Source: an uncultured Lentisphaerales bacterium (lineage in GTDB: Bacteria > Verrucomicrobiota > Lentisphaeria > JABSQK01 > UBA12247). Taken from it: a DNA stretch of 64,000 bases. Positions 2,838 through 41,736 of this stretch are shown piece after piece. The DNA is taken from positions 1 to 64,000 of the forward strand of contig CALSSJ010000036.1 of assembly GCA_943788985.1 (NCBI GenBank). Reading direction: 5' to 3'. The notes below the pieces were generated by a model. The model made no database searches. It was not told where the DNA came from and saw only the letters and a list, made by a program, of their open reading frames with translations. The first letter of the stretch is position 1. Each line of letters starts with the position of its first letter. Both the position numbers and the translations under genes were made by a program.

Positions 2838-3052
2838 TCATGGGTGCCGTTGAATGTGCTGCATCAGAGCAATCGGGTCCTTGAAGACCAAATGATTGAT
2901 GCGCTGGAGGATATAACGAACCGACGCACCGCTTTGTGAACAGACCGCGGCGAAGGTGTCTTTAATGTGGCCACTGCCGTAGGGGCGCCCCCCTAGATGA
3001 AGTCGGCTCGCAGGTCGAATACGCCGGCAATAGCGCGAAGGTCGTGCTTCAA
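2838..3052 (-). pseudogene. N-terminal fragment of N-acetylhexosamine 1-kinase / aminoglycoside-phosphotransferase family protein
   Basis: TTG start overlaps the nagB stop. Reads PYGSGHIKDTF...RYILQRINHLVFKDPIALMQHIQR, the typical NahK/LnpB-like N-terminus, then ends abruptly. Confidence 0.7.
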
Positions 3053-3840
3053 TGGTAGGGCTGCCATTCAGGTTCGTGGTCGAAGATCCAACGGTAGTAT
3101 TCTTGCTCGACAAGTTGCGCGGCGGCAGCTTCGTCTACGATCACTCGGCAGCGAGCGTGGAGTTGCAGGGCTGACGCCGAAATCATGGAGGTAACTGGGC
3201 CTTCCACTGCCCGCGCCAAGACCTGCGCCTTGCTTGCTCCAGTCACCAACAGTAGGATTTCGCGAGCATCAAGAATGGTGCCGACGCCCATGGTCAAGCC
3301 CCGATGTGGCATGTCCTCGGGCCGCGAGAAAGTAGCCCTGCGTTTTGGGCGATGGTGGTGGGGCGTCAGGGCTTTCTCGCGCGTCCGGGACTGCAGGGCA
3401 GAAAGCGGCTCGTTGAAGCCAATGTGCCCAGACTTACCGATCCCGAGCAGTTGCAGGTCGATGCCACCGCAACGGGCGATCCGCGCCTCGTACGCGAGGC
3501 ACTCAGCAGCGAGGATCTTCGGCAACGCCATTCGGGCAAGTAGGTGTTGCGTCGGTCGACGTTGATTTTACTGAAGAGGTGCTGGTCCATGTAGAAGCGG
3601 TAGGACTGGGGATCGTCGCCAGCCAAGCCTACGTACTCATCGAGATTGAAGGTACGGACCAGTGAGAAGTCCACTGCCTCGTCGACATGGGCGCGCGCAA
3701 GTTGAACATACACGCGCTCCATCGTGGCTCCAGTGGCAAGGCCAAGAACCAAGTCAGGTTCGGCTCGTACCTGATCGGCGATGAGCCGAGTGACAAGATG
3801 TCCGGCGTCTTCACGCGTGGGGACGAATAATGACTTCCAT
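3049..3840 (-). CDS. nagB: Glucosamine-6-phosphate deaminase (frameshifted)
   Basis: MEVIIRP start; VLGLATGAT, TFNLDEYVGL, GGIDLQLLGIGKSGHIGFNEP, TMGVGTILDAR, EGPVTSMISASALQLH. Confidence 0.93.
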
Positions 3841-3854
3841 ATGGGGACTCCTGT

Positions 3855-4711
3855 TTACGCGAAACGCTGGATGCGGGCTTGAACTTCTTCCTGGAAGCGC
3901 TCGATATAGGACAGGGCATAGGCCTTCAAGCGTGAGAGTATCGTCGACGATCAAGCACGTCAGGTCCATGCACCAGCTGAGTGCCAAACTAGCATCGACG
4001 GCGTGTGACTCGAAGAAGGTCGCATTGGCCGCCTGGCGGCCCGTAACGGCCAGGTCGTAGGACTTGCCGCCCGCGATCTGCGAGTCAAAAGACACCCGAT
4101 AACGCCGCCCGGAGGTTCCGGTGCGGCTCGACATCCATCGCCACCTTGTCGGCATCACAAAGCCAGTCCAAGGAGCGCCAGACCTCGCAGCCTACCACCA
4201 ACTTTGGCCGGGCATCCTGCGGCAATTTGCGCAACGCGGCGATTGCACCGCAGCAAGGGTGGCCACATGGGTGTCATGCTTATCTGTAGGGTTGTGCAGA
4301 TAGACCGTCTCAGGACAGGTCGCAAGGAGAATCTGATACAGATCTTCCGTGGTACTCTCATCCTTCGCGTCCTTTTATGATCCGGCTCGGGTAGCCCAAC
4401 TGAAATCTGGCAGGCGTACTCACCGATAAACCGCAGCTTTGCGCTGCTCGTGCTGCCGAATCGCCATCATTTCCTCATTGGTGCGCTCGGCATAGGGGCC
4501 GCAGCGGACACTCCCCCCCACCATCGGTGACTACCACGCCGGTAAACCAGCGATCGGACTGCCCGAAGCACACCGCGATCCCGTGATAGGCCATAAACTC
4601 TTGGTCGTCCTGGTGCGCGCCAATGCACAGGTGCGTGGTACGCGCGAGCGCCTCAGGCAGCGACTCGCCATCCGGCACAAACACGTCATGATCGGTTCGT
4701 GAGAGATTCAT
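3855..4711 (-). CDS. PIG-L/LmbE family N-deacetylase (several frameshifts)
   Basis: THLCIGAHQDDQEFMA metal-binding motif; VVVTDGGG; FDSQIAGGKSYDLA...NATFFESH; C-terminus YIERFQEEVQARIQRFA* ending at 3855. Confidence 0.8.
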
Positions 4712-6130
4712 CTAGCAGCTCGCTCCTTGCTTTCCATTTCTGATATCTGGTAAACTAGCGGCGGCAATGGCCTGGCCGTGTCGCTTCATCGACTCATCCG
4801 GGCTCGTGATGCCGATGCGCTCGTGCAAGGTCCGGAAACTCCAAGGCCAGCACCTCGTTCGCCTTTGCCACGATAGCTTCGCCACCAGCTCCTGAGCTGA
4901 CCCGGCCCAGAAGCAGCAGATTTCGCAGCTCATAATGGTCCGCATACTGCGCGATCGCGTAGCCAAAATAGGTACCGATAGTCTCATAAAGACGTTGCGC
5001 TCGCTCGTCCCCCGGCGGCCATCTGCTCCTGCAGAATGACCAAGCGTTCCGGTAGTCGCATTTCGGCGGGCGTCTCGATCCCGGCTGCTGGCAACAGGCG
5101 CGCTACGCCTTGCTGGGAGAAATACTGAACGCCGCAGCCAATATCGCCCGACCACTCATCGCGTGGCGCGTCCTCACGGTAGTCGATCGGGACAAAGGCT
5201 AATTCATTGAGCCATGACGTAACCTCGCCCCTGCGGGTTACAGTACCCAGCAGCCAGGCTGGTCCCCCATGGCGACCCCGAGAACTGCGGTATCGCCGAG
5301 CGACATAGAGCCTGCCCAGCGCCGTGACTTCGCCGTCGTTGATCACCTCGCAGGGCACGCCCCAGAGCTCCCGCAGACGCAGGAAGATGCCGCGCACATC
5401 AGTCTCGAACGCCTCTGGCGAAACACCGCGAAAAAGCGACGCAACCCGAACTTCGTTATCCACATAGATCCCGGCGGCGCTGCCGCCAATGGCGTCGACC
5501 CGTGGCAAATGCGCTGCCGCACGTTCCAAAGAATCCTGAATCCCTGCCAAGTGATAGGCCCGGATCGCTCTCAAAATATGGTGACCAAGTAATTTCTTCC
5601 GAAAAGACGACCTTGCCGTCGATCACCGCGGCGCACTTGCGGTCGCTTCCGCCCAGATCAAAGCCAATTCGGCAGCCGTCCAAGTTACGCCCTAGGGATC
5701 GCCCGGTCTCGTGCGTGGTTGGGATGCTCGACTCATCGCAGCCTTCTACGCGCATGTCTTCTCCGTACACGCCCCGGCCGATAGTTTCGCTATCGAACGC
5801 GTGGGCACCGCCAGGTGCATACTGCAGGGCAAGAGCAACGGCAATCTCGGGTGCGCCAGCCACAAAGATCCGCGATCCTCCCCACTGCCAGAGCAGAAAC
5901 TTCACCTCTCGTTCCACGGCTTTCGCCGTCAGCGCCGCCCACGCGGGCTCGGCGGGCAACACCATCATCTCGCGCCGAAATGTCGTGCCATCCGGGCGGC
6001 CAATACCAAGCACCACCCGCCGACTACCAGCCGTGGCGGCACACAAAGCCTGATAGCTCTGCTTCCAAAGAACGGCCGGGACAAAGCCTGGATCCAAAAT
6101 TGGCGCCACCCGCGCCGAAGGAACATTCAT
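4712..6130 (-). CDS. ROK family sugar kinase-like protein (frameshifted)
   Basis: RIGFDLGGSDRK phosphate-1 motif; IGGSAAG; VINDGEVTAL; WLNELAFVPIDY; no N-terminal HTH. Confidence 0.8.
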
Positions 6131-6269: not shown

Positions 6270-7421
6270 ATGCGCAGCGATCAGATTCGCAAACGAGCGG
6301 CGAACCGTGCCGCGATCCTAACGACCTTGCACTACGATGGTCCGCAGCAGCGGAGCAGCCTGGCCAGCGCTTGCGAAGTCCGCAAGGCGAGCGTGACAAG
6401 CATCGTCGCTAGCCTCCTGGAAGAAGATCTAGTGGACGAAGTCGAGCCTGGGCGCTATCGGAGCGCAGTGAGGCTCAGGACAAAATCAAACCTCGGCCCT
6501 AGTCGCCAGCATCAGCCCCCGCGAGATTGTGGCTTCGTGCCTAGATCTGGCAGGAGAGACCGTCTGCATCGCCACACGGCCTGTCGCGGCTGACGCTGGG
6601 CCGGACACCATCCTCGCCACCCTTGGCTGCGGAGTTTCGCAGCGATGCAGGCGACCGTCGACGGCGCAGTGCTTGGGCTAGGCGTCTCGGTCCCGGGGAT
6701 CACCGATCCTGGCACAGGAGTCGGGTCCTATGCAGCCAACTTGCCGGGCTGGCGCGACGTCCCGGTCGCCGCCTATCTCAGCGACCGCTTCGACCTGCCT
6801 ATCGCTGTAGATAACGATGTCCGCTGCCAATTGCGGGCCCACATCTGGTTCGCCAGTTCTCCGCAGGAAGTCGACAGCGTTTTGTATGTGCTTGTCAACG
6901 ACGGCGTAGCTTGCGCATTTGCGCAACATGGCATCGTCTCACCAGGCGCCTACTTTGCAGGCGGCGAGATTGGCCATATCCGCGCCGGGGATCGCCACCG
7001 CCCATGCGCTTGCGGCCGAGAAGATTGCCTGGAGACCTACTGCAGTGTGCCAGCGATTCTTGCCGAAGTCCGCCCACTGTGCCCGGCTCCTGCTCCTGCC
7101 ACAGCCACCGATCTTGCCGCCGTTGCAGCCAAGTCGCCTGCTGTCGGCAATGTGCTCGACCGCGCAGCTGGCTATCTCGCCCACGGCATCGCCGGCGTGA
7201 TAGCTGCCTTGGACCCAGCGGTCCTCGTAATCGGTGCCGCAGACCACGCCTTTGCCGAATGCCTGTGCCCCTTGCTACGCACACGCCTCGATCAGGAGCT
7301 CATGGGCCTTGCCGTCTCTGGGTTGCGCCTGATCGCCGCAGGCGATGCGGAGCGAGAGTCCCGTCGTGGCATTGCCGCCACCGTCATTCAGAATAGCTTC
7401 AACAACACTGCTGAACCATGA
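6270..7421 (+). CDS. ROK family transcriptional regulator (NagC/XylR-like), frameshifted
   Basis: N-terminal winged HTH (RSSLASACEVRKASVTSIVASLLEEDLV); GLGVSVPG; VDNDVR; GEIGH...CACGREDCLE zinc motif. Confidence 0.88.
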
Positions 7422-7453
7422 TCGCCAATCTTCATCACGCACGGAGAATTCTC

Positions 7454-7648
7454 ATGCCCCGCATGCTGACTGCTCTACTCATTATCGCTTGCACCCTCGC
7501 GTCATCCGGCCAAGAGCCCGGCGGTGCCGTGCACCATTCCTTCAGCGTGCGGCATTCCGTCTCTCAAAAAGAGGCAACAACCGCAGCGGACGCACGTCGA
7601 TGCGAGCATGTTGGTGCGAATGGACAGCACGTTAGATTTGGATTCTAA
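7454..7648 (+). pseudogene. Short signal-peptide ORF, probably the truncated start of a secreted protein
   Basis: MPRMLTALLIIACTLASSGQE signal-like N-terminus followed by only about 45 aa. Confidence 0.35.
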
Positions 7649-7687
7649 AGGAACCGATTCGAATCCGGTACATAAGAAACGCAAAGA

Positions 7688-7989
7688 CGTCCTCACCCAG
7701 TCACCGAAAATGGCTTAATCCCGGAGTCCCCGGACAATTCGGGCACACCGCGGCTCGCAAGGCTACGGGCGTTGACGCGACTCAGGAGGTGGACCGGGCC
7801 CGGTCCGCAAGTTGCCCGCAAGGCAGGCCTCGAGATGACCGTCGAGTAGATGATTGGGGATGGTGCGACCGGCAGCACCTAAAACTAGGCAGCCATGACC
7901 AGTGTCGTGTGCAGGCTTTGGCCTCACACGAAGGAGGTAGTCGGGAGCAGGAGCCTGCAAGCTCCCCGATAATCCGCAAGAGCTGGTTA
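7688..7989 (+). ncRNA. Putative structured non-coding RNA of unrecognised family
   Basis: Two multibranch domains closed by long-range stems (7696-7703/7851-7858 and 7896-7903/7982-7989). At least 7 local hairpins, five GCAA motifs, G-U pairs favouring the + strand, no credible ORF, followed by a terminator. Confidence 0.6.
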
Positions 7990-7990
7990 G

Positions 7991-8027
7991 GGTAAGCCGT
8001 ACCTCTCAGGCTTACCGCTTTTCATTT
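7991..8027 (+). terminator. Rho-independent terminator
   Basis: GGTAAGCC (7991-7998) / GGCTTACC (8009-8016) perfect stem followed by GCTTTTCATTT. Confidence 0.7.
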
Positions 8028-8039
8028 ACGTCGCTTAGA

Positions 8040-10139
8040 TCATTTCGCCAGCTTGCGGGCGGCAACGTCGCGACGCATGGCGTCGAGCAAGGTGATGGCG
8101 GCAACGCCCTCGGGGGTGGCCGCGTGCCATCGTTGGAGCTCGGACTTCAGCGTGGCAGCAGTTACGTCGGAGAGCGGGGCATCTAGGGCCGCAAGGGCGC
8201 AGCCCGGGACCAGACGGCTTGTCCGGACATTACGGAGCAGATCATTCGCTTTTTTGATCAAAGCGGGGGTTTCCGCTGGATCGAGATGACGCATCATGGT
8301 CAACCACAGTACCCCTTCGGCATGCCGCGAGGTGGGCTCACGCATTGCCTCAAGAACCGAGGACCAATGCTCGACTTTGTTGTTCTGGGCCTTCGGTTTC
8401 TTAGTCAGGTCTAAGATCTTCTTGTACATTTCGAGACGCTCGATCTTCTCCTGCTCGCGAGAGGAAAGCTGCTGCGAGTACGCGTGAATCTCGAAGCGCA
8501 GCACATCGGCATCGGCCACCAGCGCCCCAGCCACTGCCTTGAGGGGCTGGCCTGTGTGAAACTTCAGCGCAATGCCGAGAACGTTACTCAGGAATGAGAC
8601 GTCATACGCAGCCGCATAGATGCTCTGGCCGATAAGTTCTGCGTAGATCTCGGTGGGGAGCTTGCGCTGCTTCAGGTAAGTCATGAGCCGGGCGCGGTCT
8701 TCGGGTGCATGGCGGTGGATGAGCAAAGACGCTACGTAGCGATTCAACAGTGACGTGGCATCTGCGGGCTTAAACAGAGAGGTGATTGTCTGGTTGACGT
8801 CGTCATCGCTCATGCTAAGGAGCCCAACAGCCTCACGGAGCAGATCGTAGCGGGTCTCATCGGCAAGTTCATCATTCTTGATGGCGGCGAAATATTGCGG
8901 GCGCAGATCCTTGTTGGCCTCGGAGAGCATGTAGCCCGCGTAGCTCTTCAGGTCCTGCTGATCTGCAGCAGCAAAGGCAGCAGCGTATGCTTCGATTGCC
9001 TTGGCGGAGGGGGCGTCCTTGAAGTGGTTGCGCAAGGCGATGTGAATCCCGGCATTCAGCTGATCTGGCACGATCATGGCGGCGAGCACGTTCTCAGCTT
9101 CGCGTTGGAGCCCCATCTGCTTCACCAATCGAATCAACATCTCGCGACCACTCGGGGTGTGATTGAGCGCAGGATTGTACGGAATGTCGTCTCCGCGATA
9201 GGCGAGGCGGCTGGTCGGCAGGGCTTTGATGACGGCGCGGCGCAGCAGCTCCGCCGTGGTACCGTTCTGGAGAATGGCGCCTGCAGCTTCGGCCTGCACG
9301 CCTGAATCTGGGTCCTGCAACAACCGAGCCATGGCCGTAAGGATAGCCTCGCTTTCTGGCATGTCGTTGAGCGCGCGCGCGGCGGCGCGGCGGACATCAC
9401 GCGCGGCAGCCGTGGACGCTGCGATAACGCCGCGCTCGACATTTCGGACGTGGTAATGGGCCCGGGCACACAGCAGCCATTCAAGCTCGACGATGTTCTC
9501 AGGAGTCGGGTTGGCGACCTGGGCCTTTACCTTGGCGGTATCCAGCCCACTGCGAATGCGGGCCGCAGTCTTTTTCGGGGCGTCGCCAGTGGGGCGAATG
9601 TCCAGAGAGCGTACGAGCAATGACGCCAGCGATAGCGGAATCCCGCCGGTGGAAACGTCTGCTGGATCATACCAACGCATGCGCACATTTCTGCCCTCAA
9701 TGGGGTAGATACCAACGCCAAGTGCTGGCACTCCGTAGCCGGAATAGGTCTGCACCGTAATCTGCTCCTCTACCTCAGCTGCGGACACTGTGCCCTCGCG
9801 TAGTTGAACCATGAGTTCCTTTGGCGCCATGCGGGTGCGCGTCAGATCTGAACGCCACTTCAAAAACACCAGATAGCGCTTCCTTACTTCAGGCTGCACC
9901 TTGGCGCTGCCAAGGTCGTACGGGTCATTGAACCCGCCGAACTCGATAGATGAGGTGGGCTCGCCACCTTTCAGTACAATCAGGGTCTTAGCGGATGCCA
10001 GCCAGCGACCGGCGCCTTGCATCTCCACCACAGCGATCAACGATGAACTACGAACGAGTTCAGGAAAGGCCGGCTGGCTCGAGCCGAAGCAGGAGGCTGC
10101 GATCAGTAAAACCGTGAAATATCTTAACCGACTTAACAT
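8040..10139 (-). CDS. Hypothetical exported protein with HEAT/armadillo-like repeats
   Basis: Intact 699-aa ORF with N-terminal signal peptide. HEAT-like RDVRRAAARAL...LLQDPDSGVQAEAAGAI; helical C-terminal two thirds. Confidence 0.7.
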   Translation of the reverse strand: MLSRLRYFTVLLIAASCFGSSQPAFPELVRSSSLIAVVEMQGAGRWLASAKTLIVLKGGEPTSSIEFGGFNDPYDLGSAKVQPEVRKRYLVFLKWRSDLTRTRMAPKELMVQLREGTVSAAEVEEQITVQTYSGYGVPALGVGIYPIEGRNVRMRWYDPADVSTGGIPLSLASLLVRSLDIRPTGDAPKKTAARIRSGLDTAKVKAQVANPTPENIVELEWLLCARAHYHVRNVERGVIAASTAAARDVRRAAARALNDMPESEAILTAMARLLQDPDSGVQAEAAGAILQNGTTAELLRRAVIKALPTSRLAYRGDDIPYNPALNHTPSGREMLIRLVKQMGLQREAENVLAAMIVPDQLNAGIHIALRNHFKDAPSAKAIEAYAAAFAAADQQDLKSYAGYMLSEANKDLRPQYFAAIKNDELADETRYDLLREAVGLLSMSDDDVNQTITSLFKPADATSLLNRYVASLLIHRHAPEDRARLMTYLKQRKLPTEIYAELIGQSIYAAAYDVSFLSNVLGIALKFHTGQPLKAVAGALVADADVLRFEIHAYSQQLSSREQEKIERLEMYKKILDLTKKPKAQNNKVEHWSSVLEAMREPTSRHAEGVLWLTMMRHLDPAETPALIKKANDLLRNVRTSRLVPGCALAALDAPLSDVTAATLKSELQRWHAATPEGVAAITLLDAMRRDVAARKLAK

Positions 10140-10911: not shown

Positions 10912-13600
10912 TAGTCGGGCAGTTGGTACCGCACTACACCACCGTTGGCAAAGAAGACGCCAAGCTCGTGCCGGGAGATGGCCAGAACAGCCAGGGCGTT
11001 CTCCTGTGGCAAGGTGATGGAATACGCAGGCTTGGTCTGGCGACGATAGTAGATGTCGATGGTCTTCTGATTGGCAACCGCGTAGTGATACTCGCTGACC
11101 GCGCCGGCTAGGGCGACGCCTTCGTTCTCAAGCAGAACGACTGGGCTCTCGCCGGGGGCACGCAGCCGGATGACACTGAAGCCGCGGCGGCAGATCACCA
11201 GTACGACGTCGTTGTGGGTGCCTCTGCGGAGTTCGCGAATACTGCTGTTAACGGAGATGGAGTCGGTGCCGATTCCCGGCCGAAAGAGCACGAGCTTGCG
11301 GCCCACGCCGATAATGGCGCAGTCTTGGACAATAATGAATGGCTCGCCGTAGGCCGGCCGTGTGAGGGTGCTGGCACCGCCTATGGAGACGTCGAATACG
11401 CCCTTTAGCACGCGATCGTGATACTGGGCAATGGCATAGCCGAAGGGGGCCAGTGGTGAGGACCCACTGCAAGCCGTTGCGATCGTAGGCGATGCCAAGG
11501 ACATTCGCTGGCAGCCAGTCGGGCCCGACCACGACGGAGTCAGCCAGGCGGCTAGCCCCGTAGCCAAAGGCTTGGGTCTGGGTGGCGCAATCGGGAAAAT
11601 GCACCAGCGTGGGCATCTGGTTCTGCCCGTCGACAGCCACCAAAATGCGGGGAACGGTGAGAAAGCACCCGCTCGAAGTCGAGAATGTCTTCCTGCCCAT
11701 CCCAGCTGCAGCGGGCGATGACAGGCGCGCCTTGCGAGAAACCGGCGGCGACGAACCCGGTGGGAGCCACTTGCACGGCCATCCAGCGCGCCTCGATGCT
11801 CAAGTTGAAACTAGCCAGGGTCCGGACGGTCTCTTGGAGGGTGAACGTGCCGGCCACCTTGTCGCGCCAACGCTCAAAATGACGGGTGGCATCGCGCTGT
11901 AGGAGCGTATCTTCCGGAGCCAATTCCCGCAGGGTGCGTACGGCTAGACGCACGGTGGCAAGGTCGGAGCCACCGAGATAACGGCTAAGCAAGACCCTGG
12001 CCTGATCCGCGGCAAGCTCCCGCACCTCGCGGCCCGGGTAGCCCGATGCGATGTCCGCAAGCATTTGGGCGATGTCCGCATCTCGGAGATGTCCCGATGC
12101 CTCGAGGACGATATTCCCGACGATCTCAAAGGTCTGGGAATGACGGCCCAGCCGCCCCAACAAGGCGATGCGTTCGCGCAGTGCAGGAATCGCCTGGCGA
12201 GATTTGGGCCAGGCTGCGGCGAGGCACTCAAGGGCGGTCTCTTGGTCTTGCAGTTTGGTCTCGTAGAGGTGCGCGGCAGAGACGGTATTGCCCTGGCTCA
12301 GCTCCCTGGCGACAGCCTGCTCATAGGCGTTCGTGGCCTGTGCTTTCTGGCCCAGCTGTGCGTAAAGGTCACCAGCCTGCGCGTATTTCCCGTCGCTCTC
12401 ATAGATGGGGATTGCTTCGCTGAGGTAGCCGCCAGCCACGAGGCAGCGCGCGGCCTCAAACGGTCGCTCAAGGTGGTCCCGATAGAGAGAAGCGGCTTCG
12501 CGATACTGCTTGCCGGCCTCGAGGATAGACGCAGCCTGCGCGTAGTCATGGGCAAGCTCGGCGAGAATGTAGGCGGCGCGGCGCGTGCGCCCCATGCGGA
12601 TCTCGCGATTCGCCAGCTGACGATACAATTGCAGTAGCTGGTGCTGCAGATCTAGCGGGATGGTCCAGGCATCTCCGGCATCTCCGCCGCCAAGGCGGTC
12701 CAGGTCGAAATCTGGCTTTTGCTCGCTCAGATTGGCCTTGGGCTCTGAGGTGCCGCGCGAGGAACCGCCACTGAACGGGATCGCATACTTCAGGCCTTCA
12801 TCTGGGTCACACTCGAGCATTGACACGAGCCGCTCGATCTCGACGCGGCGACGCATCTGCATCTTCTCGCGCATGTGACTGAGCTTTCCGTGCATCCACT
12901 TTCCCACGCCTGAGGAAGATCCGCCCTGGCCCTCATCTGGGCGCCCGGCCCGGGTTTGCATGGCTTGCTCCATAGCGCCTAGGCCGCGCTCGGCGCGTTC
13001 GCGCACCATCTTGCCGAACTTGGACTCTGTCTTTTTTCCGGGCAGCGCCTCGGGCTTTTCATTGGCAATATTCTCAGAGAGCCACGTCATGGAATCGGCG
13101 ACCGCCTCGTTCGGGTCTGCTTGCACCGCCAACAGTGGGACCGACTCGCTTTCTGGGGCAACTGCGTGGAACCATTCGGTCTTAGGCTTGCAGGAAATAC
13201 TTACGAGGTCTTGCAGGCCGTGGATGTCATTGTGTTCGATCGGGATCAGCCCGATCGCTGGATGCCAGCAGGCTTTCGGATAGGGAATGAGGCCCGCGAG
13301 TTCGGTTTCTGTGACGGCTGGCAAGATCTCCCGATCGATCGGGAGAAAAAGCGGCCCCATGGTCCTGTAGGCAATAGCGCGAGGGGATGGTTTGGGCGAA
13401 AGCGGCTGGGCAGCGATCAGCAACGCCCATGGCGTACGGTCTCTTACGCTGCTAGGCAGGATGTACAGGGGCATGTCCATAGTCGTAGATGGCCATTCAA
13501 GTAGGATTTCCAGCCAACGCCGAGTCCCGCTAATCGGGAGCAACCAGGCCCCGACATCATGTGGCGTGTTCGCCGGCGTGAGTTCAAGTTGCGCTTTCAT
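10911..13600 (-). CDS. bpX3-like domain + TPR + beta-rich C-terminal protein of a MoxR-vWA-beta-propeller ternary system (frameshifted in 3' third)
   Basis: N-terminus GAWLL..WLE....LYILP.S...LFLPID....P......L......WHPAIGLI; LECDPDEGLKYAIP; RRAAYILAELAHDYAQAASILEAGKQYREAASLY TPR array. ORFs 11248-11700 and 10911-11567 continue it. Confidence 0.72.
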
Positions 13601-16272
13601 TCGCAGGCCGCCAATACGGAGCGAAGCATTGGTTCGAATTCAGCACAATCTTGTTCTTCTCCATGGGTCAGTTCCTTCAGACCAAACACGCGGTTGGCCG
13701 AGGTCCACGCAGCAAGCGGTCCATCTGTGAGGGTAATGCAGATTTCTTCAGAGGCTGAGTCGTTTGCACGGATGTGAAGCATGTTGAGCGAGTCAAGAAT
13801 GCAGGCTCCTCGCGGTAGTTCTGCCCGCCGCAGGGTGACGCCGAAACCGCGCGGCGAGGGGATGGCCATAAAGGTGGCGCGATTTACCACCAAGGGATCG
13901 CCGGGCAACAGACAGAGCACGCCATGGTCAAAGGTCAGGCCGAGCCAGCCTTGCTCTTCGTATTGAAGGAAGAGGTTTCCGGACTGGACCAGAGCGGCGG
14001 TGATCCCTCTGACTCCCGGACGAGTGGTCGCGGTAGCCGCGGTATTATGGCTCTCCAGCACAGCCTGCCATTCCTCGGTCTGGTCGGGGCGCAGCGTGAG
14101 CCTCTCTACGGAAGAGGACTGCAAGTCGTATTGCCAGAGCTGATTGGCGTTATCGCAGGCGATGACGAGATGCCCGTCTGGGGAGCTCTGCGCCCAGGTG
14201 ACAGGCTTCACGACCAGCATATTCGTCAGGATACTACGATCGATCGAGCGATCGATAATTTCTCCGTCGGTGCCAACGGACCATGGCCCAAGGTGCCCGA
14301 AGCGGTCAAACGGATGGACGATCTCCTGCGCGTCGCCCATGCGGTCGAACTGAATGCCATTGCTCCAACTGAACTGGTACCAGCCGTTGTCTTTCTTATC
14401 CGAGCTCTTGCAGAACCGGCCATCATGATGCCGGAGCTTATGCTCCCGGCAGTCCACAGTCTGCAGTATCTCACCGGTCGCCAGATCGACCGCGTGTACT
14501 TCGGGCAGAGACACGTAGAACACGATGCCGCCGTCGACATAGGCCGGCAGCCCACGGCTGACCTGCAGTTGCACGGGCGAAGAGACGACGCGCCCAATGA
14601 GATCGGCCTGCACGGCAATCCGTGCCCGCGATTCGCCCGCACGAGCCAGAAGGATGCATTCCCCTTCTTGGAAGAAGGCGGCAGACGGCGTGGCCTCGGG
14701 TAAGCGTACGGACAGCAGGCGCGGGCAGCGCTTGGGATCGTCGAAATACAGCAGCGTCCCATCCGGCTGTAAGGCGATGGCCTGGTCCGGCCCGTTCGCG
14801 CACACGTGGCGCACGTCGACATCCGCAGGGACGCGCAGCGGAAACTCATCCAAGTCATAGATTAGCGGTCGTTCACCAGTGCTGGTAGCCTTGGTCGGCG
14901 CGCAGGCGTCACGCAGAATGCTTCGTTCCATCTCGGCATGCCGCAGGCGCAAGTTTCCACTGGAGGTGACGGAATAGATACAGAATTCACCATGGCTGTT
15001 TACTGTGGCTGCGTAGAGGTGAGCAGAATTCACCAGCCGCAAGTGCCGCCGAAAGTCCGGGTCCTGCAACGCGCGTTCATGGGTGATGAAGATGACCTCA
15101 CGGTCCCGCGGCGGTAACAGTCGCAGCAATTGGACCAGAGCCAGTCCGGGATGAGCGGTGGTCTCAAGCACCTCCAGGTGATCGATGAGATCGGCCCGCG
15201 ACGAGAGACTGACGGCTTTTACCCGATCCTCATCACTGCGCCAGATCTGCACGGTGCCGTTCCCGGTGGTACTGGCGAAGGCAAGCGCAGCAGCGGTCGC
15301 CATAATGCGCGGCACGCCCCACATGCGGATTCCGCAATCCAACAGCAGAATGCGGTGACGATCCAGTGATTGCTGAGCTGGTTCGCGTCGCAGGTAGAGC
15401 GCTTCATTGTTCGCCAGCCGAGCTGCCATGGTTAATTCGTCGTATGCAAGCTCGGTAAGTAGCAGGCGATGGAGCTCTCCACGGTTCGAAATGTCCCCAT
15501 AGCCGTCGCCCGTCACATCCACCGGCGAATGACACAAGCGCGGCAGATGGCTGGCGGGCACCAGCCGGTTCGCAAGATTCACCAAGGCGCCCAGCTCATC
15601 GTCCTCACGCAGTTGCTGGAGCAGGTAGCTGAACTCACGCCCCACCTCGAGTTCTTCGGGGGTGCTGGGGATGTCATCCAGTCCAGTTGCGGCCCGAACC
15701 GCGACCACGTTGAAATCGAGCTTTCTCAGTCCTTCGTGCAGCAGCTTGATTTGTCGCAACGTGTCGGCGAGCGAGTCTTCTGGCGACTGCGGCGGACGCG
15801 GCGCGAGGGACGTAGATAGATCTCGGAGAGCGCCAACGACACCTGGCGCGTCCTCTGACGAGACTTCTCGGCGGGGCAATACGAGCTCGGCCACCGTCGC
15901 CTGCCCGGTAGGGGACTGGCTAAACGGCTGCTCATTAATCTTTTCGAGGACCTCCATGGTCTCGTGCACCAACTCCTTGGCGTCGTCCCATTCCTCAGGG
16001 TAGATCGTGCAGATGCCGTTTAGAAAGGGGCTGAAGATGCCATGGCGCACCTCATCGCGAGACCAGTCGTTGGAGAAACTGACCATGAGCATGACCAAGG
16101 CAGGAAACGGCGGAAGGCCATCGTGCTCGAGGCGTTCAAGGATTCCCACGACCTGCTGCCGAAACGCGACCAGCCGACCATTGGCCAAGGCTAGCTCCAC
16201 GCCGTCTTCCGACCATTGCCAGAAGCTCTGCTCGTGTGGCGCGAAATGGGCGCGTGCGATCGTTTCGCTCAT
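13597..16272 (-). CDS. bpX1/bpX0-like + vWA + beta-propeller protein of a MoxR-vWA-beta-propeller ternary system
   Basis: Probable start MSETIARAHF..SFWQWSEDG; GLPPFPALV; GYGDISNRGELHRLLLTELAYDELTMAARLANNEALYLRRE; RILLLDCGIRMWGVPR; beta-strand repeat C-terminus. ATGA overlap with the next gene. Confidence 0.75.
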   Translation of the reverse strand: MSETIARAHFAPHEQSFWQWSEDGVELALANGRLVAFRQQVVGILERLEHDGLPPFPALVMLMVSFSNDWSRDEVRHGIFSPFLNGICTIYPEEWDDAKELVHETMEVLEKINEQPFSQSPTGQATVAELVLPRREVSSEDAPGVVGALRDLSTSLAPRPPQSPEDSLADTLRQIKLLHEGLRKLDFNVVAVRAATGLDDIPSTPEELEVGREFSYLLQQLREDDELGALVNLANRLVPASHLPRLCHSPVDVTGDGYGDISNRGELHRLLLTELAYDELTMAARLANNEALYLRREPAQQSLDRHRILLLDCGIRMWGVPRIMATAAALAFASTTGNGTVQIWRSDEDRVKAVSLSSRADLIDHLEVLETTAHPGLALVQLLRLLPPRDREVIFITHERALQDPDFRRHLRLVNSAHLYAATVNSHGEFCIYSVTSSGNLRLRHAEMERSILRDACAPTKATSTGERPLIYDLDEFPLRVPADVDVRHVCANGPDQAIALQPDGTLLYFDDPKRCPRLLSVRLPEATPSAAFFQEGECILLARAGESRARIAVQADLIGRVVSSPVQLQVSRGLPAYVDGGIVFYVSLPEVHAVDLATGEILQTVDCREHKLRHHDGRFCKSSDKKDNGWYQFSWSNGIQFDRMGDAQEIVHPFDRFGHLGPWSVGTDGEIIDRSIDRSILTNMLVVKPVTWAQSSPDGHLVIACDNANQLWQYDLQSSSVERLTLRPDQTEEWQAVLESHNTAATATTRPGVRGITAALVQSGNLFLQYEEQGWLGLTFDHGVLCLLPGDPLVVNRATFMAIPSPRGFGVTLRRAELPRGACILDSLNMLHIRANDSASEEICITLTDGPLAAWTSANRVFGLKELTHGEEQDCAEFEPMLRSVLAACE

Positions 16273-16468
16273 AAATTTGTTCAGCGGAAATTCAATGGTT
16301 GCCTGACCGGCGCACAGTAGGGTGTTTTTGTGGCTCGACAAGTCACTGGTCCAATCTGCGATGGCTCGTATCGTTTGGCTTTCCGCGTCGGAACCATCGG
16401 CGCAAGGCGCTGTCACAAGCGCTCGCCTGCGCGCCTCGCGCATCCCGTTCAACTAATACGCACCGTGC

Positions 16469-34344: not shown

Positions 34345-35645
34345 ATAATTCAGAAACCTTTCCTCCCCACTATTTTACTTTTTCTAGGCTATGGCTTCTG
34401 GGTCAGTCCGGACTTCAAGGAGATCGCTTCAGGGCTGGCGGTTTTCCTATTCGGCATGTACTTCCTGGAAGAGGGGGTTTCGCGGATTCACCGGTGGCAC
34501 GCTGGAAGCCATCCTGCGGCACAGCACCGACCGTACCTCGAGGAGTCTTTCGTTCGGCGTGGTCACCACCACCATCATGCAATCCAGCTCGCTGGTATCG
34601 GTCATCACGATTTCCTTTCTGAGTGCAGGGCTCATCGACTTGGCCGGGGGCTTAGGAATTATTTTTGGTGCGAACCTCGGCACGACAACCGGTGCCTGGC
34701 TGGTGGCGGGCTTGGACCTGAAAGTAAAACTCTCTGCCTATGCGATGCCCGTGCTGGTCTTTGGCTGTGTGTTGTATTTCCAAAAGAAAAACACGCTCCG
34801 GAGTCTTGGGTTTATCCTGGCAGGCTTGGGCTTCCTTCTTCTGTGCATTCATTTCATGAAGGAAGGCTTCGAGGCGTTTAAGGACAATATCGATCTCGTC
34901 AAGTATGCGATGCCGGGGTACAAGGGCCTGTTTATCTTTGCGGGAATTGGCGCGGTGGCCACGGTCATCATGCAGTCAAGCCACGCTGCGCTGGTGATCA
35001 TCATTACTGCATTGGCCGCGAAGCAGATCACCTATGAAAATTCGCTCGCCTTGGCCATTGGTGCGAACGTAGGCACAACTATTACCGCGATCGTCGGGGC
35101 GATGAGTGCCAGTATTGATGGGAAACGATTGGCCGGTGGCCACCTGGTGTTCAATATGACCACTGGAGCAATCGCCATCGCGACCATGCCATACCTGGCC
35201 AAGGCGGTCGATCGCATCAGCGCCGCCTGCGGCATTGCGGCAGACGACTACACCCTGAAGCTGGCGGTGTTTCATACGCTCTTTAATTCCAACGGCGTGA
35301 TTGTCATCGTGCCGCTAATCGGGGTTCTCGTACGAACGCTTTGCCGGGTGATCCAGGAGAAAGAAAAGCCTTCCACCGCACCGCGCTATCTAAACGACTC
35401 GGTCATTGAATTTCCGGGTACGCTGTTGAGCGCCGTGCAGAAAGAGCTCTTTCATCCGTACGACAATGCGTCTGAGGTCTTAGCCCATGGCATCAGCTTA
35501 AGCCGGACGGACCTGCTATCGGAAAAGAATTGGACCAGATCGTCAGGGAAAGTCGTCAGGTCATGCACATTGATATTGACGAACACTATTCACTGAACGT
35601 GAAGAGCCTGTACGCAGCGATTGTTGAATTTAACTCCCATGCCCA
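34345..35645 (+). pseudogene. Na/Pi cotransporter family protein; start apparently ATA, frameshifted, C-terminal PhoU-like part truncated
   Basis: Two repeats MQSSSLVS...GANLGTTTGA and MQSSHA...GANVGTTITA. Homology appears to stop after LYAAIVEF. Confidence 0.8.
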
Positions 35646-35787
35646 GTGGTCCCGAACACGAAAGCACCATCCTAGGCGACATCTTGTTCAATTCCCCTCG
35701 ACAGATATCGGCTTGGTCCTCATAGTAGGGATCGATCGGCCGCATCGTCGATCCCGCGGTCTAATCCACACAATTTCCGAGCGCAAC

Positions 35788-36901
35788 ATGCCAAAACGAA
35801 AAGCGGCCCCAAAGCCTACTAAATCCTTCGAGGAAACCCTCTGGGACACCGCCAACAAGCTCCGTGGCTCCGTCGAGTCCTCGGAATACAAGCACGTCGT
35901 CCTCTCGCTGATCTTCCTCAAGTTCGTCTCCGACAAGTTCGAGGAGCGCCGGGCCGAGCTGATGGCCGAGGGCAAGGAGGACTACCTCGACATGGTCGAG
36001 TTCTACACCATGCAGAATGTCTTCTACCTGCCGGAGACCTCCCGCTGGTCCTACATCCAGCAGCATGCCAAGCAGGGCGACATCGCCATCAAGATCGACT
36101 CCGCCCTCACCGACGTCGAGAAGAGCAATGCCTCGCTCAAGGGCGCCTTGCCCGACAACTACTTCTCCCGCCTCGGGCTCGATGGCAGCAAGCTCTCCGC
36201 CCTCATCGATGCCATCAACAACATCGACACCGTCGAGGACAAGGAAGAGGACACCGTCGGCCGGGTCTATGAATACTTCCTCGGCAAATTCGCCGCCTCC
36301 GAGGGCAAGCTCGGGGGCGAGTTCTACACCCCGAAGTGCGTCGTCAATCTCATCGCCGAAATGATCGAGCCCTACAAAGGCAAGATCTACGACCCCTGCT
36401 GCGGCTCCGGCGGCATGTTCGTCCAGTCGCATCAAGTTTGTCGAAAGCCACCACGGCAGCAAGAAGGACATCTCCGTCTACGGGCAGGAGTTCACCGCCA
36501 CCACCTACAAGCTGGCCAAGATGAACCTCGCCGTGCGCGGGCTCTCCGCCAACCTCGGCGAAGTCCCCGCCGATACCTTCTTCAAGGATCAACACCCCGA
36601 CCTCAAGGCCGACTACATCATGGCCAATCCCCCCTTCAACCTGAAGGACTGGCGCGGCCCCGACGAACTCGTCCACGACGGACGCTGGAACGGCTACGAC
36701 ACCCCGCCCACCGGCAATGCCAACTACGCCTGGATTCTCCACATGGTGAGCAAACTCTCCGAAAACGGCGTCGCCGGCTTCGTCCTCGCCAACGGCTCCA
36801 TGTCCACCAACACCAAGGGCGAAGGCGAGATCCGCCAAAAGCTCGTCGAGAACGACCTCGTCGACTGCAACGAAAACCAAGCCTACCCACTCGCCGCATG
36901 A
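35788..36901 (+). pseudogene. hsdM: Type I R-M methyltransferase HsdM (outer system), C-terminus missing after about 36868
   Basis: [48 protein letters not shown]. Ends at LVDC plus an unrelated 10-aa tail. Confidence 0.88.
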
Positions 36902-37022
36902 AGAAAAAACACTGCAAGCGCGACATTCGACAAAGCTCAGCCGAAGACGCTTAGATCAACGAACGTATTGCTCCGGCACCCACACTTCCCCAAATTCACA
37001 CTAATTTCTGAATCACCCAAAA

Positions 37023-38597
37023 ATGACCAGCACCCAACAATTTGACGAACTTAAACGCCGCATCTGGCAGATTGCCAATGACGTTCGCGGAACCGTGGAC
37101 GGATGGGACTTCAAGCAATACGTGCTTGGCGCGCTCTTCTACCGCTTCATCAGCGAGAATTTCGCCAGCTACATCGAAGGCGGCGACGACAGCATCGACT
37201 ACGCCAAGCTGGATGACTCCGTGATCACGGATGAGATCAAGGACGATGCCATCAAGACCAAGGGCTACTTCATCTACCCCAGCCAGCTCTTTGCCAACGT
37301 CGTCGCCAAGGCGAATGACAACGAAGACCTCAATACCGATCTGAAGGCGATCTTCACCGCGATTGAAAGCTCGGCCATGGGTTACGACTCAGAGGAGGAC
37401 ATCAAAGGCCTCTTCGATGACTTCGACACCACGAGCAATCGCTTGGGCAAAACCGTCAAGGACAAGAACACTCGACTCGCTGCCGTGCTGAAGGGAGTGA
37501 ATGAACTTGATTTCGGAGACTTTGAGGACAACGAGATCGACCTCTTCGGCGATGCCTACGAATACCTGATCGGCAACTACGCGGCCAATGCCGGAAAGTC
37601 GGGCGGCGAGTTCTTCACTCCCCAGCATGTCTCCAAGCTGATCGCCCAGCTCGCGATCCATGGGCAGACGAGCGTGAATAAGATCTACGACCCCCGCCGC
37701 AGGTTCTGGCTCACTTCTGCTGCAGGCGAAGAAGCAGGCGAAAAAGCTCACTGGAAATGACTACTTCATTGAGGACGGCTTCTTTGGTCAGGAGATCAAC
37801 CACACGACCTTCAACTTGGCTCGCATGAACATGTTCCTGCACAATGTGAACTACGATAAGTTCAACATGCAGCTGGGCAACACCCTGACCGAACCCCACT
37901 TTCGTGAGGACAAGCCCTTCGACGCCATCGTCTCCAATCCTCCCTACTCGGTGAAGTGGGTGGGCAGCGATGACCCGACCCTCATCAACGACGACCGCTT
38001 CGCCCCCGCAAGTGTGCTGGCTCCGAAGTCGAAGGCGGACTTCGCCTTTGTCCTGCATGCGCTGAACTACCTCTCCAGCAAGGGACGCGCCGCCATCGTC
38101 TGCTTCCCCCGGCATCTTCTACCGTGGCGGAGCCGAGCAGAAAATCCGCCAATACCTCGTGGAGAACAACTACGTGGAAACTGTCATCTCCCTCGCGCCC
38201 AATCTCTTCTACGGCACCACCATTGCCGTGACCATCCTCGTGCTCTCGAAGAGCAAGACGGACACGAAAAGTGCAGTTCATCGATGCCTCTGGTGAGGAT
38301 TTCTTCAAAAAAGGCACCAACAACAACCTGCTCACCGATGCCCACGTCGCCGAGATCATGCAGCTCTTCGACCGCAAGGAAGACGTCGATCACGTCGCCA
38401 AGTCGGTGCGCATGGAGAAGGTGGCGGAGAACGACTACAACCTCTCCGTCAGCTCCTACGTCGAGGCCAAGGACACCCGCGAGGTCGTCAACATCACCGA
38501 GCTGAATGCAGAAATCGAAACCACGGTGAGCAAGATCGACGGGCTCCGTAAGGACATCGACGCCATTGTGGCAGAAATCGAAGGGAGCGAGGCATGA
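37023..38597 (+). CDS. hsdM: Type I R-M methyltransferase HsdM (inner, EcoR124I/type IC-like), frameshifted
   Basis: [59 protein letters not shown]. Confidence 0.92.
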
Positions 38598-38996
38598 GCG
38601 GGAGGACCTTTCTGGAGAAGCTGCTCGATGGAGCGGAGGTGGAATGGGTGCCGTTTGTCGCAAGGCGAGAACAAGTTAACAGAGCTGAAACGTGGTAGAG
38701 TAATGTCCAAAGGATACTTGGTCGAGAATTCAGGCGACTATCCAGTATATAGCTCACAAACAGCAAAGAACGGGCAGATTGGCAAAATCAACACCTTCGA
38801 TTTTGACGGTGAATCAATTACTTGGACGACTGATGGTGCGAACGCTGGGACTGTTTTTCATCGAACAGGCAAATTTTCAATCACCAACGTGTGTGGGATT
38901 ATTAGAATCTGTGACACGGGTAGGTTGAACTACCGCTACTTATATCACTATCTGTCGTTCAATACCCAAAAGTGGCCAATGTCGGTGCATAGCTAA
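38594..38996 (+). pseudogene. hsdS: Type I R-M specificity subunit HsdS, only first TRD legible
   Basis: FLEKLLDGAEVEWVPL conserved start; RGRVMSK, YPVYSSQT, ITWTTDGANAGTVF, TNVCG. AT-richer; sequence then degrades. Confidence 0.8.
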
Positions 38997-38999
38997 TAC

Positions 39000-41663
39000 G
39001 TGGTTCTGAGGATGGCCGTTTGTGGAATATCTGATACCACGAACACGGAAAACCCGCAAGATCAGAACTAATCAGACTTCGTCTTGATGAGGCCATAAAC
39101 ATTACTGCTGATAAAAAACTGCTGCAACAAATGCAGGTATCAACAGTTTGAGCACGGAGCCAGCCAACCGCTAGATGTACCATTCTGTGAAGGTGCCCTG
39201 GTGCAGTGAGCTGAAAACGGGGTCGCATCGGAAGCCTTTAACCAGTCACGTACAGCAAGAAGTTTAACGGAGATCGCTCTAAATATTCAGTTTGTATCTC
39301 AAGGCACGATAGCCGTATTTGCAAACAGCGAACAAAACAGCTTCGACTTCAATGAACTGGGCGAAGGCGAAACGCTGATAGACTAAGACTTACGCACTTT
39401 TTCCAAAAATACCTCTGAAGTCTCTGATATTCGTTTTGATGTGAGACACTTCTGTGATGCGCCCCTACCAGATGCGCCACCGAGCGATCTTGGAAGTAAG
39501 CCATAGGCAAAATGGAGCAACGAAAGGGGGTTATCTGGCAACCACGGTCGGAAACTACCAGCTTTAAAGCCGCCGGCACGACTGGAGTTTGTCGAAAGGT
39601 TTTTTGTGTGGATGAAAAGACCTCGATACCAACGATGAAGAATACCAACGCTTTCCCCGATAGCGTGAATGGTCGACAGACGCGGTAAGCGAATGAAAGA
39701 CGATAAAAATCATCGTCACCACATCAGAAGCTAACAACCTGATGGAGCGATCTCCCATCTACAAAGCAGTGGTTTATTTGATGAATGCCACCGCAGCCAA
39801 TTCGGTGAGGCGCAGAAAAACCTGCAAAAGAAGTTCAAGCGGTATTACCAATTTGGATTCACGGGCACGCCGATCTTCCCTGAGAATGCTTTAGGCGCTG
39901 AAACAACAGGCAGCGTCTTCGGGCGGGAGCTGCATTCCTACGTCATCACCGATGCGATCCGGGACGAGAAGGTGCTGAAGTTCAAGGTGGACTACAATGA
40001 TGTGCGTCCTCAGTTCCAAGCCATCGAGACCGAGCAGGACGAAAAGAAGCTCACCGCCGCAGAGAACAAACAGGCCTTGCTCCACCCTGAGCGGATTCGT
40101 GAAATAACGAGCTACATTCTCAAGAATTTCCCCTTGAAAACGCATCGTGCCCACATGGGCGCGAAGGGCTTCAACGCCATGTTTGCGGTCAGCAGTGTCG
40201 ATGCTGCCAAGGCGTATTACGAAGCCTTCCGCGAGCTGCAAGCTGGTGTGGAGGACAAGAAACGCCTCAACGTGGCGACCATTTTCTCCTTTGCCGCCAA
40301 TGAAGAGCAGGACGCTGTCGGCGATATTGCCGACGAGAGCTTCGAGGTGTCGGCGATGAATAGCAGCGCGAAGGAATTTCTCAGCGCCGCCATTGGCGAC
40401 TACAATGCGGCCTTCGGATCGAATTACGGAGTCGATAGCAAGGGCTTCCAAAACTACTACCGCGATTTGGCTCAACGGGTAAAGAAGCAGGAAGTGGACT
40501 TGCTGATTGTGGTGGGAATGTTCCTGACGGGCTTCGATGCTCCGAGTCTCAACACGCTCTTTGTCGATAAGAACCTGCGTTACCACGGACTGTTGCAGGC
40601 GTATTCACGCACCAATCGAATTTACGATGCGACCAAGACCTTCGGCAACATCGTGACCTTCCGGGATCTTGAGAAAAGCACCATCGATGCAATCACGCTC
40701 TTCGGCAATGCCAACACCAAGAACGTTGTTCTGGAGAAGAGCTACAAGGAATACATGGAAGGCTTTACCGACATCGCCACTGGACGAGCCTGTCGCGGTT
40801 ATGTGGAAGTCGTCAAAGAGCTGCACGAACGATTCTCTGACCCAAGTGCGATCGAGAAAGAGCAGGACAAAAAGGATTTTGCAAAGCTGTTCGGAGAATA
40901 CCTGCGGGTAGAGAATGTGCTGAGGAATTACGATGAATTCACCGGACTTCAAGCGCTCCAAGAAGTGGATCTGGACGATGCGGAAGCGGTCGAAGAATTT
41001 AAAACGAAGCATTATCTGAACGACGATGATATTGAGGCGATGCAGAAGATCGAAGTGCCAGCTGATCGACTGGTGCAAGACTATCGTTCGACCTACAATG
41101 ACACCCGCGATTGGTTGAGGCGTCAGAAAGAAGGCGGTGAGAAGGAAGAGTCCACCGTGGATTGGGACGATGTCGTGTTTGAGGTGGATTTGCTGAAATC
41201 TCAAGAGATCAACTTGGATTACATTCTGGAGCTAATTTTTGAGCACAACAAGAAGACCAAGAACAAGGGTGATCTCATTGACGAAGTGAGACGAGTGATC
41301 CGAGCGAGCATCGGCAACCGTGCCAAAGAAAGCCTGATTGTTGATTTCATCAATCAAACCAATCTGGACGACATCGGGGACAAGGCCAACGTCATCGATG
41401 CCTTCTTCACTTTCGCGCAAGCGGAACAAAAGCGCGAAGCCGAGGAGCTGATCCAGACCGAGGCGTTGAACCAGGAGGAGGCACGACGCTACATCAAGGC
41501 GTCCTTAAAACGCGAATACGCAACTGAGAATGGCACGGCCCTCAATGCTACACTGCCGAAAATGAGCCCGCTTAACCCCCAATACAAAACGAAGAAGCAG
41601 ACAGTCTTCCAGAAGATCTCCGCCTTCGTTGAGAAATTCAAGGGGGTTGGGGGGCAGATCTAA
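39000..41663 (+). CDS. hsdR: Type I restriction endonuclease HsdR (inner, EcoR124I-like); 5' part garbled, 3' part intact
   Basis: [55 protein letters not shown]-terminal [10 protein letters not shown]. Start coordinate approximate. Confidence 0.88.
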
Positions 41664-41736
41664 CAGGGTTGTGTCCTTTTAACGCCTGCCTGCCATCATG
41701 AAGGCCCTCGTTTTTTCTCCCTCCACCGCTCCTCGC

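Follow-up and report, generated by a model that had tools for sequence, protein, structure and literature searches.

The DNA analysed here, a window of 64,000 nucleotides, carries at 7540..8016 on the + strand an element that is almost certainly homologous to the 3' (ring) region of GOLLD RNA, a giant cage-forming RNA of bacteria and phages; it is complete from the first to the last stem. It is best explained as a stranded, little-decayed ring remnant, whose 5' cap, promoter and tRNA-array context have probably been removed by deletion or illegitimate recombination. Positions 7540-8012 match the Rfam GOLLD model (RF02032) over its whole length (1-416 of 416 positions) at 98.2 bits (E = 2.1e-26), which falls below the gathering score of 150 bits; the match surfaces only in E-value mode, and at gathering scores the sole Rfam match across the window is a tRNA at 7608-7673. 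The gathering score is also missed by seven of 17 homologues (L014, L016, L018, L020-L022 and L025; 113-148 bits). HMMs built from homologues only, with the window left out, recover the element as the top match in the genome, with E-values of 1.5e-15 (10 loci above the cut-off), 1.2e-21 (four genome loci) and 9e-32 (16 loci, L025 left out), and the genome holds a single GOLLD copy, at 7540-8012(+). Homology across the conserved 3' region and a covarying 3' secondary structure with pseudoknots are shared with GOLLD RNA; the 5' cap domain, the total length of about 700-830 nt and the usual, though not obligatory, context near tRNA genes or in prophages are lacking. Because cap and length were tested and are not there, the element is a cap-less GOLLD variant and is not filed as a full member.

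A sequence-only reading had described the region as an unassigned RNA, and had itself named a strong hit to a known Rfam family as decisive against this; the match over the whole GOLLD model is such a hit, though it lies below the gathering score. The estimated extent of about 330 nt was too short, as the RNA starts about 7540, 148 nt upstream of the proposed start, and comprises one more hairpin as well as a tRNA-like domain. It is very improbable that this is a new stand-alone RNA family or an RNA-based mobile element with its own terminator: routine annotation does miss an element below the gathering score, and a truncated gene does adjoin it, but the full-length GOLLD match and the homologue-only HMMs assign it to a known family, and it is present as a single copy without flanking direct repeats or an associated nuclease. 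The faint resemblance to HEARO/omega-RNA came to nothing, with no match at E<=10 and with a ROK gene and a HEAT-like ORF, not HNH or IscB, in the flanks. The same reading rightly recognized the sequence of a + strand structured non-coding RNA that is not a riboswitch and follows a truncated gene start.

According to the cryo-EM report, full-length GOLLD folds into cap and ring domains and forms hollow 12- to 14-mer RNA-only cages, in which the linker, plus any linker tRNA, points inside, and encapsulation has been proposed as the biological function (PMC12286853). The GOLLD RNA of env-38 is described there as a 14-mer cage (Kretsch et al., PMC12286853 / bioRxiv 10.1101/2024.12.08.627333); its 3' region is given as residues 421-833 (PMC12286853), which fits the 416-position Rfam model, and its bridge B7 joins residues 546-547 with 617-618 (PMC12286853, Supplementary Table 2). 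Stem numbers were mapped by eye onto the window from the env-38 model, and bridge residues from this table. The window shares with env-38 GOLLD the helices of the whole 3' region, two pseudoknots and, by this mapping, the residues of B6-B9 and the L26 and L27 motifs. It differs in having no 5' cap and a length of about 480 nt instead of about 800, in an L24 without the A-run of B10, in a G.G in the L22 pseudoknot, in the absence of a tRNA island or prophage, and in a score of 98 bits, under the cut-off.

The structure was examined by comparison. Eight pattern scans, two of which found nothing, gave 21 loci, 19 of them with a GOLLD match; L019 and L032, which lack such a match, were set aside. 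L023 and L024, with 99.8% identity to the window, are not counted among the homologues, which number 17 (13 viral contigs and four named genome records, one from Lentisphaeria and three from Verrucomicrobiota). Neither the alignments nor the counts include L010, a match in genome G006. In a MAFFT alignment of 18 sequences that was not fitted to structure, 72.8% of the cells of 84 pairs are paired, as compared with 55.5% in shuffled alignments (0/500 as high) and 35-47% when the structure is slid, a control over which a structure registered on the window has an advantage. Compensatory, two-sided changes, which the sequence-only reading had proposed to look for, are present in 68 of the 84 pairs, and RNAalifold independently gave 37 pairs, 31 with two-sided changes.

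The RNA begins with stems P13/P14 (7540..7606; numbering mapped by eye to env-38), which bear the A-rich loop L14 (7565-7569), which serves as B6 donor in the cryo-EM cage. They are followed by a tRNA-like domain and by the GC (7681..7682) of a conserved GCAAAG linker motif, a predicted partner of L20 in bridge B7 from the alignment as mapped by eye. The long-range helix 7696-7703/7851-7858 (7696..7858), which had been proposed as the closure of a first domain, is paired in 84-96% of cells with two-sided changes in 8/8 pairs. A pseudoknot helix, 7710-7715/7891-7896 (7710..7896), likely P17, had been overlooked; it is 87.9% paired, shows two-sided changes in 5/6 pairs and is intact in the window at 6/6 pairs. 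Hairpins 7720-7743 and 7748-7768 (7720..7768) come next, the second bearing loop L20 (CGCAA, 7756-7760), which is invariant across the alignment. The P21 multiloop (7772..7845) is closed by an outer helix, 7772-77/7840-45, also overlooked, of which the five inner pairs are 91% paired. Inside it, P21a (7791-7806) exposes a palindromic loop (7796-7801) predicted to form the self-kissing bridge B8, and P21b (7813-7825, 95% paired) is predicted to provide bridge B9 and the receptor of B6. The P22 hairpin (7862-7879, 94% paired; whole feature 7862..7890) has a loop that pairs with 7888-7890 in homologues; the middle pair of this L22 pseudoknot is G.G in the window and C-G in 14/18 rows. P23 (7897..7988) encloses P24 (7905-7931), the loop of which lacks the A-run of bridge B10, and P26 (7942-7976) with conserved GGGA and AUAAU. 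P27 (7991-98/8009-16) with its UCUCA loop is followed by a U-rich run (7991..8027) and is a possible terminator; it is absent from the list of a terminator scan, in which the loop limit was 8 nt.

The strings and coordinates in the sequence-only reading are correct and the arms that it listed do pair, including the covariation-supported hairpins 7813-7825 and 7862-7879, while its further stems fared unevenly. Hairpins 7720-7743, 7748-7768, 7791-7806 and 7905-7931 and helix 7897-7903/7982-7988 are paired in 41-75% of cells (single-pair ends apart), mainly because their arms vary in length and fall out of register; the homologous stems are visible by eye. A GCG-TTGA-CGC hairpin and hairpin 7829-7846 lack support and conflict with the covarying helix 7772-77/7840-45, and the arm 7941-44/7966-69 is 36.9% paired vs 34.3% in shuffles, of which 60/500 are as high. 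Five GCAA motifs are indeed present, at 7757, 7807, 7818, 7957 and 7976, but most lie in CGCAA pentaloops or junctions, not in GNRA tetraloops. What had been called a terminator has a covarying stem (7994-8013, 93%) and a U-rich run, and may also terminate, but it is the GOLLD stem P27 with the conserved UCUCA loop.

As mapped by eye, the window keeps the motifs of B6 (the A-rich L14 and the P21b receptor), B7 (the linker GC and L20), B8 (the central GC of the L21a palindrome) and B9 (L21b), as well as GGGA/AUAAU of L26 and UCUCA of L27. The B10 adenosines of L24 are not evident, and the A-run is absent also in the Verrucomicrobiota loci L020-L022. Most of the contacts predicted for open RNA rings would be available to the element. 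Two within-species changes in the ring core are structure-neutral: one at 7808 lies in a junction, and one at 7824 turns G-C into G-U, the commonest pair of the family there. At 7808, the window has C where four DNA runs, L023, L024 and two RNA-library runs have T, and this C is probably an error or a rare allele.

Folding energy was rejected as a test of the element. The z-scores against shuffles are about -1, no better than shuffles, when the sequence-only reading had looked for a difference (7680-8035: -0.98 on the + and -1.07 on the - strand; 7540-8012: -0.83; 7688-8027: -1.61), and the subregion 7896-7990 alone stands out (-3.48). The nine homologues tested, out of 17, spread between -0.9 and -3.1, so that folding energy says little for a pseudoknotted family and comparison must carry the evidence.

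The linker J13/15 holds a pseudo-tRNA (7608..7673, +) with D, anticodon and T arms, which Rfam scores as tRNA at 36.5 bits (cut-off 29); the statement that the RNA has no tRNA signature was thus mistaken, as this domain lies inside the same RNA. The anticodon is UGG (7639-7641), the acceptor stem has 4 bp, the CCA is missing and the T loop is closed by an A.C mismatch. ARAGORN made no call at 7608-7673, and the domain does not match the 7-bp acceptor, intact T stem, discriminator and CCA end of a functional tRNA-Pro(UGG), so judged by its sequence the pseudo-tRNA would not decode. A normal tRNA-Pro(TGG) is present on contig C23 of the genome. A tRNA is called at the same place of the linker in 10/17 homologues (by Rfam, and by ARAGORN run without L025-L032). 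Because the eight ARAGORN linker calls show seven different anticodons, their sequences argue that the linker tRNA serves structure and not decoding. GOLLD RNAs of Mycobacterium and Mycolicibacterium with a tRNA or pseudo-tRNA in J13/15 have it at the same position, where it is likely non-decoding, according to two reports (PMC6582537, PMC12990946). The mycobacterial RNAs are full-length and lie inside large tRNA clusters (PMC6582537, PMC12990946), whereas the window element is cap-less and alone and its acceptor stem is more eroded.

Linker tRNAs vary in other ways among the homologues. L022 has one with a UUA anticodon at 2593-2661 (ARAGORN). In the viral locus L025 (about 1590-2000, - strand), the linker tRNA appears split in the anticodon loop by an AT-rich insert of some 400 nt without an ORF >=40 aa, and Rfam gives the GOLLD RNA of this locus in two pieces. 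L029 (about 1290-1390, - strand) has a tRNA-like linker domain with a long extra arm, uncalled by Rfam. Just upstream of the viral GOLLDs in L013 (601-670) and L016 (509-580), ARAGORN calls tRNAs with the CUA (amber) anticodon.

A host gene for a ROK-family regulator (6270..7421, +; HTH and ROK; Pfam MarR/HTH, ROK) ends 118 nt before the ring start, and between them lies the likely start of a secreted-protein gene fused to the GOLLD sequence (7454..7540, +), with GGAG 8 nt upstream of the ATG and a hydrophobic N-terminus. This frame runs from ATG 7454 through 29 codons before the GOLLD sequence and continues to a stop at 7648, within the pseudo-tRNA. Its in-frame hexamer coding score is +0.10, whereas the other frames score -0.67 and -0.56 and codons 30-64 score -0.28, and its hydropathy reaches 2.9, the signal peptide being judged by eye. 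Most simply, this ORF would be a truncated secreted-protein gene; a weak search found no longer homologue, and no clear paralogue was seen. A 169-nt contig of run X12 diverges right before 7541, which places the junction there. Misassembly at the junction was considered and rejected, as the junction is bridged in L023 and L024 and also by contigs of four DNA runs, each from a different study; one of these may be the source of the window itself.

The ROK gene is split in the window by three extra bases (near 6495, 6620 and 6635) that other assemblies do not have, and it is one open frame in L024. Over 6270-7421 and 3049-6130, many single extra bases in the ROK gene, a nagB-like gene and neighbouring ORFs are absent from short-read contigs. 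Split ORFs in this genome are often assembly errors.

The 118 nt upstream of the ring leave no room for a cap. All 17 homologues have at least 353 nt upstream with neither tRNA genes nor long ORFs: eleven have a tRNA or ORF 353-813 nt away, and six have none in the available 537-1718 nt. L020-L022 have about 370 nt of alignable upstream sequence in common. Two HMMs of the 5' domain found no match upstream of the ring or elsewhere in the genome; this model is weak, as leave-one-out tests missed 4/10 loci, L020-L022 among them when these were left out together, and completeness of the genome is 83.6%. It is therefore the argument from space that carries weight for the absence of the cap. It is improbable that a small or unrelated 5' domain in 7422-7540 substitutes for the cap, or that a cap encoded elsewhere is joined in trans. 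GOLLD RNAs are known to vary in their 5' region (PMC12286853, PMC12990946), the genome is incomplete, and 7422-7539 has a weak local similarity to L022 (6/1000 shuffles as high); three other homologues, however, gave 76-241/1000, the stretch is unstructured, folding worse than shuffles (z +0.85) and reading as coding, and no 5' match was found genome-wide.

The surroundings show no trace of a phage or of transposition. No direct repeats flank the element, ARAGORN finds no tRNA in the window, none of 16 nearby proteins matches PHROGs, no phage hallmark was seen among 28 further ORFs, and there is no integrase on the contig and no Terminase_6N in the genome. An allele of the empty site was not found: a search of 14 further genomes of the order gave no match to the ROK protein at E<=1e-20, and none of the four DNA runs has a joint that skips the element. 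Downstream, and outside the RNA, a convergent ORF of 699 aa with a weak HEAT-repeat match occupies 8040..10139 (-). Farther away, 11552-16452 (-) holds two genes with MoxR-vWA-beta-propeller ternary-system domains (bpX3; bpX0 and bpX1), and at 35530-43012 (+) type I restriction-modification genes are fragmented and partly duplicated, with two HsdM starts and several HsdR pieces; some of these breaks may be assembly errors.

In a tree of 17 rows, the element groups with the Verrucomicrobiota loci L020-L022 (98/93 support) on a long branch of its own (0.86), and these loci are 54% identical to it over the tree columns. These nearest relatives resemble the window in the linker tRNA and in the P22, P23 and P26 motifs, and with GOLLD scores of 113-121 bits they too fall under the Rfam cut-off; unlike it, they retain the upstream sequence that they have in common, and their loci contain additional tRNA genes. 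The nearest GOLLD relative that was seen is the 169-nt contig of run X12 (record 11), from another marine organism, with 7 differences in 66 nt over 7541-7606, which runs on into a more canonical tRNA start. Among relatives GOLLD is rare: of 150 other genomes in the class sample one (G006) has it, again with a linker tRNA, and of 150 in the phylum sample none. BLAST of 7580-8030 against 40 relatives gave one 23-nt chance match only, blastn of 7540-8012 against phages and plasmids gave none, and a search with a viral GOLLD produced two short matches to P13/P14. In L018 (1185-2008), the GOLLD RNA lies behind an ordinary protein gene with ~480 nt free upstream, a linker tRNA and no other tRNA in the locus, and the contig ends inside the RNA. 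Among the papers listed by literature searches with little coverage of subscription journals, none dealt with GOLLDs of PVC bacteria or with natural ring-only GOLLDs; GOLLDs outside prophages are already on record, and prophage or tRNA context is not obligatory (PMC5737381). The original description of GOLLD in 2009 is said to mention shortened GOLLDs with only the 3' half.

The ancestor of the ring would have been a full-length GOLLD that stood in a tRNA array and belonged to a Verrucomicrobiota-type subfamily; the fusion to the start of a host gene probably came about by deletion or illegitimate recombination. Nearly all divergence of the ring would have arisen while its structure was under selection. 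Any transcript of it would now be no more than the tail of the ROK transcript, of which P27 with its U-run would be the terminator, and this could help to preserve the 3' end. Possible signs of drift are two C.A pairs at the base of P14, the crippled acceptor and T stems of the tRNA, and the G.G of L22; 4/50 conserved columns are changed in the window, as compared with 0-1 in the three nearest homologues. Counts of broken pairs do not demonstrate decay: by leave-one-out, 4/36 (11%) and 11/57 (19%) are broken, several of them from register offsets, within the ranges of 0-26% and 2-40% among the homologues. Relative to L020-L022, 12-16 of 37 well-aligned pairs are compensated and 1-3 broken, but these compensations may predate the loss of the cap and hence do not decide between a remnant and a working RNA.

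Alternatively, and rather less plausibly, the element is a working, naturally cap-less GOLLD kept by its host, with the ring released from the ROK transcript or made from a promoter of its own. The break is at the domain boundary, and a break within a few bases of it is seldom expected from random deletion, though complete rings are the easiest to recognise. The helices and pseudoknot P17 are intact, L21a has a perfect 6-nt palindrome, the base composition fits that of the 58% GC host and sets the element apart from the other alignment rows, and the changes at 7808 and 7824 do not disturb the structure. One report describes decamers formed in vitro by the isolated 3' domain of Streptococcus agalactiae GOLLD (P14-P27, 375 nt; PMC12990946); both are rings without a cap, the S. 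agalactiae construct being laboratory-made (PMC12990946) and the truncation in the window being genomic, with P21b and a linker tRNA. Tentatively, ~8-12 copies might assemble into open rings or cages through kissing of L20/J13-15, L21a and L21b and an A-minor contact of L14, with the tRNA-shaped linker inside. On the other hand, no sigma-70-like promoter was found on the + strand, L24 lacks the B10 adenosines and the L22 pseudoknot has a mismatch, there is no second cap-less copy among the 17 homologues, and the rarity of GOLLD in the class and phylum samples also counts against a retained function.

In favour of a working RNA, an RNA-library contig of 210 nt falls within the element in run X17, a run chosen for holding it. 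In libraries X15 and X16, 30/30 bins of 20 kb are covered at a similar low depth of 1-8, as DNA would be, and contigs in X15 and X18 extend beyond the element into the convergent gene, a pattern expected of DNA carry-over. No RNA enrichment at the element is visible in contigs of the RNA libraries, which give no level, strand or ends, and uncovered bins in X17 and X18 are uninformative.

If the element is only a remnant, as is probable, the gain for annotation is modest. The tRNA-bearing GOLLDs of PVC bacteria (the window, L018 and L020-L022) score under the Rfam cut-off, and routine scans miss them. It is possible, if doubtful, that the element is a ring-only GOLLD domesticated by a marine bacterium of PVC type, cut at the boundary of cap and ring and placed on the chromosome away from phages and tRNA arrays, where it would still form open rings around a tRNA mimic. 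In that case it would be a natural minimal GOLLD, with the ring and linker tRNA as the working unit. Cap and ring are separate structural domains, and a natural ring-only copy would offer a short substrate for the assembly of rings with a linker tRNA and without a cap.
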